Notes under the pieces: generated by a model
The model's input: only the letters and a program-made list of their open reading frames with translations
Database searches by the model: none
Told to the model about the DNA's origin: nothing
Source: Tachypleus tridentatus
Taxonomy: Eukaryota
DNA length: 64,000 nucleotides
Reading direction: 5' to 3'
Assembly: GCF_004210375.1 (NCBI RefSeq)
Contig: NC_134831.1
Coordinates: 98,959,522-99,023,521 of the forward strand
Shown here: piece after piece, positions 56,935 through 62,239 of the stretch
How the letters are laid out: each line of letters begins with the position of its first letter
Position numbering within the stretch: the stretch's first letter is position 1
Translations under genes and position numbers: made by a program

Positions 56935-57115
56935 TCACTTAAAGGTTATTATTTTAAAATATTTTAAGACACTTTTTTCTGAACCTAGATGTACATCAGG
57001 GAGCATCAGCTTATCATTCATCACTTCATGACTGTCAAATAAGTCATGACACATGATTATAAAATCACTATAACCCGAGCATTTTTGAAAGGTTGGCCTT
57101 TCTTCTTCAGAGTCA
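56935..57115 (-). CDS. Class-I myosin tail, putative terminal coding exon (..SDFIIMCHDLFDSHEVMNDKLMLPDVHLGSEKS.. to the stop near 56935); acceptor position and phase unresolved
   Basis: Minus-strand translation ..GYSDFIIMCHDLFDSHEVMNDKLML.. aligns to the myosin-I tail segment ..[20 protein letters not shown].. (human MYO1D-type). An AATAAA lies ~110 bp downstream on the minus strand (plus tttatt near 56818). I could not find an acceptor that keeps phase with the preceding exon. My reading of the text is 1 nt out of register with ORF-track entry 56935..57129 somewhere in this interval, so frames here are uncertain. Confidence 0.35.
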
Positions 57116-57373
57116 CCTTTCAAAAGCACTTAAGATAGTGTTTTTATCCTCTTTTATCAAGATGTCTTGAACCCACGTGCTTTTCTGACATCATGTCAGA
57201 TAAGTCATATAGTTTGATTTAATGAGAAAACGAATAAACTTAAATTGAAACAGAAAATCCCACACAAAGGTAACACTAAAATATCACATAAGACCCATAT
57301 AAGTAATAACTCGTTACCTGCATAAAATATAGAAAAAAGAAATTGTGGAATGTAAACATATAAAGTAACAAAC

Positions 57374-57444
57374 CTTGTCTTTCTTAAAATCGCTAGGTAT
57401 CCTTAACACCAACACACCATCAGTCAGGTTACTTACAGACAAAC
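57374..57444 (-). CDS. Class-I myosin tail exon (phase 1 start): (T)GLSVSNLTDGVLVLRIPSDFKKDK; 3' boundary uncertain
   Basis: Acceptor ttttattctacag|GTTTGTCTG (AG at 57446-57445) joins the 1-nt overhang of the upstream exon to give ..ILTG LSVSNLTDGVLVLRIPSDFKKDK. This matches the myosin-I tail ..[29 protein letters not shown]... The donor AAG|GTTTGT at 57373 is weak; a CAG|GTAACG further downstream (57319) is an alternative. Confidence 0.6.
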
Positions 57445-57620
57445 CTGTAGAATAAAACATATCCTTTGTTTGGATGAGGTAGAAAAATTGATTGATGGTA
57501 AAAAGCTGCCTCATTAAAAGTAAGGAATTTCTAGATAAAACAATAGAAGTTAATACAGTTAGTAAATAATGCCTTCTCTCCCATTTAAAGAAGGAAACCA
57601 TCACATATGAAGTGCTATAT

Positions 57621-58557
57621 GGTAAGAAAGACAAAAGTTCCAGCTTTATAGATATAATAGTGATATATAAGCTAATGAATAAGTTTTGCCAGACACAGTT
57701 TAGACTTTATAGACATGGAACTATTACATAATAAGACATAATCAGTTAAGGGAGACAAAGTTTCAACTTTATAGATATAATAGTGATATATAAGCTAATT
57801 AATAAGTTATGCCAGACACAGTTTAGACTTTATAGACATGGAACTATTACATAATAAGACATAATCAGTTAAGGGAGACAAAGTTTCAACTTCAAAGATA
57901 GTGAACTGCTACATGAGAAGATACAATCACTTAAGATAAGCCAAAGTTGTAACTTCAAAGATAGGGAACTGCTACATGAGAAGATACAATCCCTTAAGAT
58001 AAGCCAAAGTTGTAACTTCAAAGATAGGGAACTGATACATGAGAAGATACAATCACTTAAGGTAAGCCAAAGTTGTAACTTCAAAGATAGGGAACTGATA
58101 CATGAGAAGATACAATCACTTAAGGTAAGCCAAAGTTGTAACTTCAAAGATAGGGAACTGATACATGAGAAGATACAATCACTTAAGGTAAGCCAAAGTT
58201 GTAACTTCAAAGATAGGGAACTGCTACATAAAAAGATACAATCATTTAAGGTAAGCCAAAGTTGTAACTTCAAAGATAGGGAACTGCTACATAAGAAGAT
58301 ACAATCACTTAAGATAAGCCAAAGTTGTAACTTAAAAGACAGGGAACTGCTACATGAGAAGATACAATCACTTAAGATGAGCCAAAGTTGTAACTTCAAA
58401 GATAGGGAACTGATACATGAGAAGATACAATCACTTAAGGTAAGCCAAAGTTGTAACTTCAAAGATAGGGAACTGATACATGAGAAGATACAATCACTTA
58501 AGATAAGCCAAAGTTGTAACTTCAAAGATAGGGAACTGCTACATGAGAAGATGCAGT
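57621..58557. repeat. Complex intronic minisatellite: 122-bp unit x2 (57627-57870) followed by a related 63-bp unit x~10.6 (57889-58557; unit ggaactgctacatgagaagatacaatcacttaagataagccaaagttgtaacttcaaagata)
   Basis: Direct reading. The 63-mer shares its ...aagggagacaaagtttcaactt.aaagata core with the 122-mer. Minus-strand ORF 57869..58525 (218 aa, 21-aa periodic LKLQLWL.LSDCIFSC.SSLS) and plus-strand ORF 58377..58559 are repeat artefacts. The array lies in the intron between the myosin exons at 59066-59207 and 57374-57444. Confidence 0.9.
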
Positions 58558-59065
58558 GAATTAAGGGAGAATGTATTTGCTTTTAAAGTTTGAAATACAT
58601 ACAGATAGAGAGGAATAAAGATCTGTGAGATAAACCTCCATTTTGGATGTAAAGACAAAGAGAATTCTAGAATAGAGGTTGTTAGTATTCCCTTTTGATG
58701 CAGATAGTCTCTACAGGGGTAGGAGATTGTTCAGTGAAACATATTTGTGGAAGTACAGCAGAAACGTGTTAAGAAAAACAAAGAAAGATGAAATAGAAAA
58801 CACTTTCCACTAAAGGTATAAGAAACACACAGAGACGGATACTCATGAAAACAATAGTATCACCCAATAGAAACCTTAAAAAATGAACCACAGATATAGT
58901 ATAAGGTATATGTAGCACTTTGATTTAAAGGCTATACGAAAGTAAAAAAAGAAAAAAAAACACATTGTTTATCACTTTGCTTTAATGCTGTAAAAAAAAA
59001 AACCTCATTGGTTGGCACTTTGTTTTTAAGGTTCTGGTTTTGTTAAATTAAAAAAAAACAATTAC

Positions 59066-60393: not shown

Positions 60394-60513
60394 AATTTTA
60401 CAGGATGACATTTCGAAAGTCTTCCACTTTTCGTCTTCAGGACAGGCAGTTGCCATCCACTCTACAGTTTCATCATGAATACTCTGCCTACACAGTCTAT
60501 CAAAGAATAACCA
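60394..60513 (-). CDS. Putative class-I myosin tail exon (120 nt, phase 0 to phase 0): WLFFDRLCRQSIHDETVEWMATACPEDEKWKTFEMSSCKI
   Basis: Acceptor ttattttaag|TGG (AG at 60515-60514). The end ..TGT AAA ATT|gtgtct is a weak donor. It joins in frame to the next exon to give ..SSCKI|YCAPVIKYDR, which parallels MYO1D ..SEPIQ|YAVPVVKYDR. The body loosely parallels ..[24 protein letters not shown]... Phase is consistent with both neighbouring exon models. Confidence 0.4.
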
Positions 60514-60689
60514 CTTAAAATAATACATGCCTATGTATTATAACAGAGATTACTTTGCTTATAGAACACAAAGGTTAGTTGTTTTTGTATGTTGATGATA
60601 AAGCTACTGGGATTACATGCTACTGTTCCTAATTTTGAATTGTCAGTCATAAGGAAGAAAACTGGTTAGCATCTTCTGACATAAAATCT

Positions 60690-60850
60690 TGGGCTACTCT
60701 TTAAAATGAATAGTGGGATTAACTGTAACATTACAATGCTCCCACAGCTTAAAGGACTAGCATGTTCAATGATTGGTTTAGATCTTACAACTTTGCAGAT
60801 GGTAAGTTGAGTGTCCTAATCATCAGGCCCAATAGCTGTTAGCTTACTTT
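60690..60850 (-). mobile_element. Degenerate SINE fragment of the same family (intronic)
   Basis: cttgggctactctttaaaatgaatagtgggattaactgtaacattacaatgctcccacagcttaaaggactagcatgttcaatgattggttt... parallels cttgggctactcttttaccaacgaatagtgggattgaccgtaacattata...ccacggctgg.aaggcgagcatgttt. Confidence 0.35.
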
Positions 60851-62168
60851 TAATGTACTACGTGATGTGGTTGTACATCAGCAATGAACACCTGCTTTGT
60901 CACTTAAGAAAAAAATGTCTGTAATGAGTTACAATGTATTATGTAACCAGATATGGGTGAATTATATTACAAATAGATAATATATTTGTATGTAATGCTG
61001 ACCTAATTTTTCATTCTTGGTTTCTTCTGTTCCAAGTTTTCATCCAATACACCAACTAGTTATTACTAGCAGCCCTTTATTTAACAATGTATGTACTGTT
61101 TAAACAGAAGGATTTGAAAAAAAACATTTTAACAATTGAAATTAGTTGACTAAAGAACCTACATATTAAGTTTAAACCATCTGCTTCAAAGCTGGAAAAA
61201 ATGAAGACTTTATATAAACAAAAAGTCCAGATGCAAAAAACCACATATTTTTACTTAATCAATATTGTACTTCAAAATACTGTTAACTGTTACGATTAAG
61301 GTGGAAAAAAAAGGATGAGTGTATTTAAATACTGATTATCGAACTCAAATAAGATACGCATATGGGTATTTCATAAAACATAGAACTATGTGTTTATGAT
61401 GTTTTTTTACTGAAAACAATATTCCAATGACTCAAACAATTTAACAAACATGAGCTTTATGAGCTGGTAAAATTATTATTTTTTCTGTATATTCAATATA
61501 ATCATTTTAATTTCAACTGAATTATCTTAAAGTTTCAAGTGTACTGATTTTAACTGACATATTTCTTTATATGACAGGAATAAAAACTTTAATAAGACAT
61601 ATTTCAAAAATAACATATTTTTCTAGTAATACAATTCACCCAAATCAAGAGATAAAAATGAAATGTTATTTCAATAAACTGTATTCCTATAAGGTAGTAA
61701 TACGTGGAACATAGATTTAGATATACTTTCAATAGCATCTGGAATATAAAATTACAAAACAGATTAGATTTTAAGATCATTTGCAGAATGTCTGAGAAAT
61801 GGGGTGGGGTTTGGTTTGTAAGATCAAAAACCAACACATGTCATGTAAAGCTCAATCAGCATGCTAATACCATGAGGGGAATGAGGACATGTGATGTTTT
61901 CAAGCCAAAATATTTTAATGCTTCATCAAAAGAATACAGATTATGTAGGAAATGTTAAATATCGTAAACAATTGTGCTACAACTATACATCACAAAAATA
62001 GGGGTCTCCTTGATCTACATTGGTATTTAAATGTTCATATTATAAATACTGTGTTCATTTATAAATATCAGTAGATTTATTTTTAAATGGGTTATTTAAA
62101 TTAATTACTCTACAAGAATCACATTACAGTTATATAAAACTGAAAGGAAGACATATAGTTGTTCTTAC

Positions 62169-62239
62169 CAACGATTTTTCACCCTGAATATTAAAGAAGC
62201 TATCGAAGGCATTTGCTTTCAATGTATTTTGTTCACGAG
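62169..62239 (-). CDS. Putative class-I myosin exon (71 nt): (A)REQNTLKANAFDSFFNIQGEKSL, ending in phase 0
   Basis: Acceptor ttttattttag|CTCGTGAAC (AG at 62241-62240) and strong donor TCGTTG|GTAAGAAC (GT at 62168-62167). Loose similarity to the MYO1D segment ..ASEILKGKKDNYPQSV.. that precedes the tail core. Phase is compatible with the 60394-60513 model. Confidence 0.3.

Follow-up and report, generated by a model that had tools for sequence, protein, structure and literature searches.

Evidence for the 3' end of a short-tailed class-I myosin gene of the Myo1c/Myo1h type in Tachypleus tridentatus

The minus strand of a 64,000-nucleotide stretch of the Tachypleus tridentatus genome (NCBI RefSeq assembly GCF_004210375.1, contig NC_134831.1, positions 98,959,522 to 99,023,521; hereafter the window, numbered from its first letter) very probably carries the 3' end of a gene that encodes a short-tailed class-I myosin of the Myo1c/Myo1h type. 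The myosin-I tail on this strand is real and far above chance. Five exons, designated A to E, encode approximately 162 residues of the C-terminal TH1 tail, including the PH-like phosphoinositide-binding motif, and the window holds the last five or six exons of the gene. An original prediction, made from the letters and their open reading frames (ORFs), had placed such a gene in the interval 56935-62239. Its real 3' end lies approximately 2-3 kb beyond that interval; exons D and E (54.9-55.5 kb), both outside of it, hold approximately 40% of the window's tail coding sequence. The gene is an ordinary Myo1c/h-type myosin, and its sole unusual feature is a minisatellite derived from its last exon junction, together with its uncertain last residues. 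The five exons are as follows.

62169..62239, minus strand: exon A, 71 nt, phase 1 to 0; encodes (x)REQNTLKANAFDSFFNIQGEKSL; the first tail exon in the window.
59066..59207, minus strand: exon B, 142 nt, phase 0 to 1; encodes YCAPVIKYDRHGYKARGRILVV..., with the PH-like beta1-loop-beta2 basic motif.
57374..57444, minus strand: exon C, 71 nt, phase 1 to 0; encodes GLSVSNLTDGVLVLRIPSDFKKDK when read in the frame that exon B, ending in phase 1, imposes.
55408..55511, minus strand: exon D, 104 nt, phase 0 to 2; encodes GDLILDCRDHLVEVVVKIVMASNRKSLVKVEESG(C).
54922..55021, minus strand: exon E, 100 nt, phase 2 to 0, up to the donor GTG|GTAAGT; encodes (C)IPHYLASGKQGIINFCKGINPEITKGKDGHLTV.

Gene Identity

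The TH1 domain places the product among the class-I myosins. Specifically, the five-exon product matches Pfam Myosin_TH1 (PF06017) at 83.4 bits (E 2.1e-23) over profile positions 24-180 of 185, against a gathering cutoff of 31.1 bits, and it aligns with residues 188-327 of the solved Myo1c tail, 4r8g, at E 2.2e-26. Exons B and C, when joined, yield a 71-aa peptide that scores 51.5 bits against Myosin_TH1 (E 1.3e-13) and matches 4r8g at E 2.6e-12. Homologues were collected by an exhaustive HMMER search with this peptide, a word-indexed protein search with the same peptide having returned no match. When 11 myosin-I proteins were compared with the window by tblastn, the matches fell on exactly the five exons A-E and on no others. 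No other ORF of 60 aa or more in the region matched Pfam; the only hit, IL1 at 20.2 bits, fell under its cutoff.

The family and strand given by the original prediction are therefore borne out by the TH1 and 4r8g matches, and the tail is short, as had been proposed: a stop follows TH1 within 5 residues in the spliced model described below, or within approximately 21-22 in the read-through model, with neither a GPA-rich TH2 nor an SH3 region, and homologues end at the same place. The predicted arthropod affinity likewise stands. In the protein collection searched, where no same-species entry turned up, the best match is the “unconventional myosin-Ic-like” protein of the chelicerate Limulus polyphemus (P0178; 71% identity), followed by a mite protein (50%) and a Lottia protein (57-60%); vertebrate matches are Myo1h. 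A MYO1D-like subtype, also part of the original prediction, gives way to Myo1c/Myo1h, which the best matches favor over Myo1d/g, Myo1a/b, and Myo1e/f: the only match in the PDB is Myo1c, and the named matches are myosin-Ih and myosin-Ic-like.

With vertebrate Myo1c/Myo1h, as represented by 4r8g, TH1 aligns end to end, the KYDR-GYK-R-R PH-like motif is kept, and the protein ends a few residues past GHL.V; identity, however, is only approximately 45-50%, in a comparison confined to the tail because the motor, IQ motifs, and N-terminus are off the window. Tail identity of 50-60% is seen with the Lottia gigantea protein LOTGIDRAFT_238422 (P0012) and with three TH1 proteins of arthropod or environmental origin (P0003, P0176, and P0177). 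This group is farther removed than Limulus, and the Lottia protein has a short acidic insert before GDLIL.

Full-length myosin-I queries found no motor or IQ exon in the 64-kb window; those exons must therefore lie past its end, which agrees with the earlier expectation that they would be found beyond 62.3 kb or off the window. Likewise, no exon preceding exon A was found in 62240-64000 using homologues that extend N-terminally as queries.

Exon Structure

The splice sites of all of the exons are AG/GT with pyrimidine tracts, the phases chain as 1|0, 0|1, 1|0, 0|2, and 2|0, and homologue sequence is unbroken across the A/B, C/D, and D/E junctions. The borders of exons B and C had been predicted exactly, and both exons show TH1 and Myo1c tail matches. 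Exon B (59207-59066) translates in full as YCAPVIKYDRHGYKARGRILVVSDKAIYLLNEKDFKQKHRLDFQILT, with tblastn E values down to 3e-16 and 83% nucleotide identity to the Limulus exon. The predicted position of exon A was also correct, with the same boundaries and the identical length of 71 nt in Limulus; its predicted phase of 0|0 was not. Frame 1 of this segment (62239-62169) contains a stop and 71 is not a multiple of 3, so exon A cannot be 0|0; its entry phase is 1, its exit phase is 0, and frame 3 reads REQNTLKANAFDSFFNIQGEKSL. Its acceptor is ttttattttag|CTCGTG and its donor TCGTTG|gtaaga, and the 71-nt Limulus counterpart has the acceptor context ag|CTCCTGAACAAAATA and the donor ACGTTG|gtaaga, and encodes PEQNNLKSSAFDKIIKPEDEKTL. 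With exon A included, the Myosin_TH1 match begins at profile position 24 instead of 44, and it scores 83.4 bits instead of 76.8.

Exon D is matched in tblastn by eight homologues, has the sites tatttgcag|GGTGAC and AGGATG|gtgaga, and shows 85% amino acid identity to Limulus. Exon E begins at 55021 with the coding start found by tblastn, CIPHYLASGKQGIINFCKGINPEITKGKDGHLTV..., and has canonical splice sites; the codon TG|C, split across the D/E junction, specifies a Cys that is also present in homologues.

The original prediction had assembled the gene differently, from four exons (62169-62239, 60394-60513, 59066-59207, and 57374-57444) said to chain consistently in phase, with a last exon and stop at about 56935-57115. 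Both of the segments that it adds to the five-exon model, 60394-60513 and the supposed last exon, are indeed ORFs between AG/GT-like dinucleotides. However, the phase chain breaks at the 71-nt exon, and the concatenated product scores 51.6 bits against Myosin_TH1, with only exons B and C aligning, versus 83.4 bits for the corrected model. There is no family match in 60394-60513 or 56935-57129, and no TH1 similarity in the supposed last exon; the missing C-terminal half of TH1 is located instead at 55.5-54.9 kb, in the true downstream exons 55511-55408 and 55021-54922. The Limulus locus is without exons matching 60394-60513 or 56935-57115. As an internal exon, 60394-60513 was rejected outright: it has no Pfam match, it overlaps an intronic hairpin (60343-60480), and every homologue runs through EK(T/S/V)(L/I)|Y..PV without a gap at that place, reading EKTL|YC.PV with no 40-residue insert. 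The tblastn check that had been proposed, using myosin-I proteins, recovered the exons at 62169, 59066, and 57374 but not 60394-60513 or the terminal exon. Homology thus already refutes this first arrangement, and we consider it to have almost no chance of being correct.

Comparison with Limulus

The closest comparison is with the Limulus myosin-Ic-like locus (KI897778.1 of GCA_000517525.1; L001). The Limulus gene has the same five tail exons, with identical lengths (71, 142, 71, 104, and 100 nt) and phases, and the two genes are 70% identical in amino acids and 77% in nucleotides over these exons. A donor follows GHL(A/T)V in both genes, and a tRNA-derived short interspersed element (SINE) family is common to both loci, which would by itself point to a horseshoe crab or a near chelicerate relative as the probable source of the window. 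By contrast, the terminal exon of Limulus encodes IAVSP*, and none such was found here; the 46-bp minisatellite that fills the last intron here is absent in Limulus; and the introns are otherwise unalignable. The ratio of nonsynonymous to synonymous substitutions (dN/dS) relative to the Limulus gene is 0.23, with dS at approximately 0.8. Taken together, the exon sizes and dN/dS provide strong comparative support for the predicted boundaries and for purifying selection on the tail. A dS of this size fits either paralogues or genes of different species, and the two genes are probably paralogues.

The C-Terminus and the Junction Minisatellite

Four features bear on the last residues of the protein.

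54853..54921, minus strand: read-through continuation of exon E; adds VSTYVITRTVWPSYCDRYIHNN (approximately 21-22 residues, repeat-derived) and the stop TAG at 54855-54853.
53995..54938, minus strand: 46-bp minisatellite, 21 units (Tandem Repeats Finder, 20.5 copies, 98% matches).
53896..53913, minus strand: best candidate for a terminal coding micro-exon, F, LVHYL plus TAA; the best pyrimidine tract among phase-0 acceptors with a short ORF.
53799..53851, minus strand: copy of the exon C acceptor and the first 27 nt of exon C, 53 bp, 79% identity, blastn E 3e-5; downstream of the gene.

In Limulus, the annotated protein ends GHLAV|IAVSP*, with the last five codons in a separate 18-nt coding exon 1.56 kb downstream, and the donor after GHLAV, GTG|GTTAGT, is used by the annotated model. 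Independent homologues end in TAVSPS* and SSASP*, and the spliced end is therefore genuine in relatives. In the window, 54922/54921 is the site of an equivalent donor close to consensus, ACT GTG|GTAAGT, and exon E would most likely end at this GTG|GTAAGT as the penultimate exon, splicing to a tiny terminal exon. Candidate exon F has the acceptor tcttcatttctag|CTT GTT CAT TAC CTT TAA GG and, like the IAVSP* exon of Limulus, consists of five codons, TAA, and GG, with 19 of 27 nt identical in a hand alignment. The first AATAAA 3' of the array and of exon F is at 53526-53521. The pyrimidine tract is weaker at a second possible terminal acceptor, 53825 (VYL*), which was ranked below that at 53913. 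Splicing from 54922 to the 53913 exon, giving LVHYL*, is a tentative reading that comes close to an even chance; splicing from 54922 to other acceptors is doubtful.

Alternatively, exon E may be left unspliced, with translation reading through into the minisatellite to the TAG at 54855-54853 and the minisatellite serving as 3' untranslated region (UTR). The frame is open into the second repeat unit, and the search for an AVSP-type terminal exon was negative. Relatives also make a VVS(T) continuation plausible, since fish Myo1h ends VVSTRTKAR* and carp VVSDYFSISA*, and a predicted mite homologue ending VVYIGFVITRAEKY* was aligned by tblastn with VVST-YVITR. On the other hand, the donor GTG|GTAAGT is near-perfect consensus and stands exactly at the Limulus splice position, close relatives end 5-6 residues past the junction, and the array and its vicinity contain no canonical poly(A) signal, the first AATAAA being that at 53526. 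Read-through is on the unlikely side, only a little ahead of splicing to an acceptor other than 53913.

The minisatellite itself is built from the exon junction. Each 46-bp unit comprises the last 17 nt of exon E (ATGGCCATCTTACTGTG) and the 29 nt that follow, including a donor motif, GTAAGT or GTAGGT. Nearly all of the intron after exon E would consist of this minisatellite, which arose when the exon/intron junction was duplicated in tandem. The commonest unit variant, ACGTA to ACATA, is a CpG to CpA change.

Just downstream of the gene, the 53-bp copy of the start of exon C again encodes GLSVSNLTD. All five differences in its exon part are synonymous (P ~0.001-0.004 under neutrality), its intron part differs at 6 of 26 positions, and nothing in the Limulus locus corresponds to it. 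It may have been copied from a paralogue, or it may be an alternative exon that is in use. One may even imagine the array as a ladder of decoy donors whose length may vary between individuals, with two C-terminal isoforms (a short spliced form and a repeat-encoded form, STYVITRTVWPSYCDRYIHNN) in a ratio set by repeat number, and with the 53-bp copy as a used alternative terminal exon; this we regard as an improbable scenario.

Integrity of the Gene

Several observations weigh against the interpretation given above. The motor and IQ exons are outside of the window, so that from the window alone the locus may be a 3' fragment or a truncated duplicate, and the junctions of the five exons are predicted from sequence. 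On the minus strand, searches starting at 54.9 kb found no AVSP-type terminal exon, either with a strict pattern as far as 40 kb or with a relaxed one as far as 44 kb. Candidate exon F shows modest nucleotide similarity to its Limulus counterpart and no clear peptide similarity. Finally, past exon E the DNA shows no detectable similarity to Limulus, and comparison of the sequence beyond the array with the Limulus terminal exon and 3' UTR gave scores at shuffle level.

Horseshoe-crab-like genomes contain many paralogues from genome duplication, and the locus might be a non-functional 3' fragment or a decaying duplicate of a myosin-I gene. In keeping with decay, the native AVSP-type C-terminus seems to have been lost, the last exon junction has been overgrown by a minisatellite, and the exon C acceptor has a stray downstream copy; the gene also adjoins 33 kb of satellite DNA, and its dS of 0.8 relative to Limulus is more suggestive of a paralogue than of an orthologue. 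However, all five exons are open, with canonical splice sites intact and lengths unchanged, dN/dS is 0.23, and the residues of the PH motif are conserved. A fragment or decaying duplicate is quite improbable, more so even than the isoform scenario above, and a Myo1c/Myo1h-type gene under purifying selection remains by far the better reading.

Predicted Function

The tail of Myo1c binds phosphatidylinositol 4,5-bisphosphate, PI(4,5)P2, via a PH-like motif, and either K892A or R903A abolishes binding (PMC3771945). Aligned with 4r8g, the present product keeps, in VIKYDRHGYKARGRI, both the K of KYDR and the R that stands 11 residues further on, and the basic signature of the beta1-loop-beta2 region is thus found at both positions, at the level of sequence. 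These residues would correspond to Myo1c K892 and R903, a numbering that we infer from the 11-residue spacing. If it behaves like that of Myo1c, the tail would tether the motor to membranes containing PI(4,5)P2, and the motor would bind actin. The gene is presumably expressed, and its product is predicted to connect membranes with actin, as Myo1c/h does.

Repeats and Surroundings

The locus is unusually minisatellite-rich. Three repeat features lie in introns of the gene.

57629..58552, strand not assigned: complex minisatellite in the intron between exons B and C, 0.92 kb; 63-bp unit x 11.3 and 123-bp unit x 2.2.
60343..60480, minus strand: intronic hairpin (inverted repeat), stems approximately 33 bp; fold -63.2 kcal/mol, z -8.76; self inverted match.
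60684..60766, strand not assigned: intronic SINE fragment of the tRNA-derived family common to the Limulus locus.

The 0.9-kb complex minisatellite and the SINE fragment had both been described in the original prediction and were found again, as were its repeats of approximately 40 bp, at 62379-62489 with a related copy at 63295-63365. The hairpin was considered as a miniature inverted-repeat transposable element or a known RNA, but the window contains a single copy, the Limulus locus lacks it, and no Rfam family matches it; it may be a foldback element or a local inverted duplication. The same intron contains a second inverted repeat (59315-59412 and 59649-59746), with arms of approximately 100 bp that are 79% identical and approximately 240 bp apart.

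Beyond the gene, SINE copies at 45136-45335, 45701-45931, 48123-48358, and 50338-50566 are 82-90% identical to positions 17380-17616 of the Limulus locus, and Rfam recognizes the tRNA-like head of a full copy at 50308-50367. On the minus strand, 46793-47870 contains broken ORFs with apparent frameshifts (ELQKQGLSQRAIV and CSPELNPVDNVWGWM), which, by resemblance, we take for a putative Tc1/mariner-type transposase. Over half of the window, 1-33435, is a single satellite array with a 63-bp unit, approximately 520 copies, 91% matches, and a 128-bp higher-order period, and it yields many spurious long ORFs on both strands. More tandem arrays are found at 41458-41732 (39-bp unit x 7), 55919-56073 (75-bp unit x 2), and 63887-64000 (54-bp unit x 2). 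Across the whole window, CpG is strongly depleted, with an observed/expected ratio of 0.21 at 37% G+C; that of the Limulus contig is 0.33.

Conclusions

The main value of this work is in annotation. Reading ORFs and splice motifs alone had given this myosin gene two false exons, one internal and one terminal, and the corrected model restores the full C-terminal half of TH1. The junction-born minisatellite leaves the last residues of the protein uncertain, and it provides a small curiosity in its own right: tandem repeats remodelling the 3' end of a gene.

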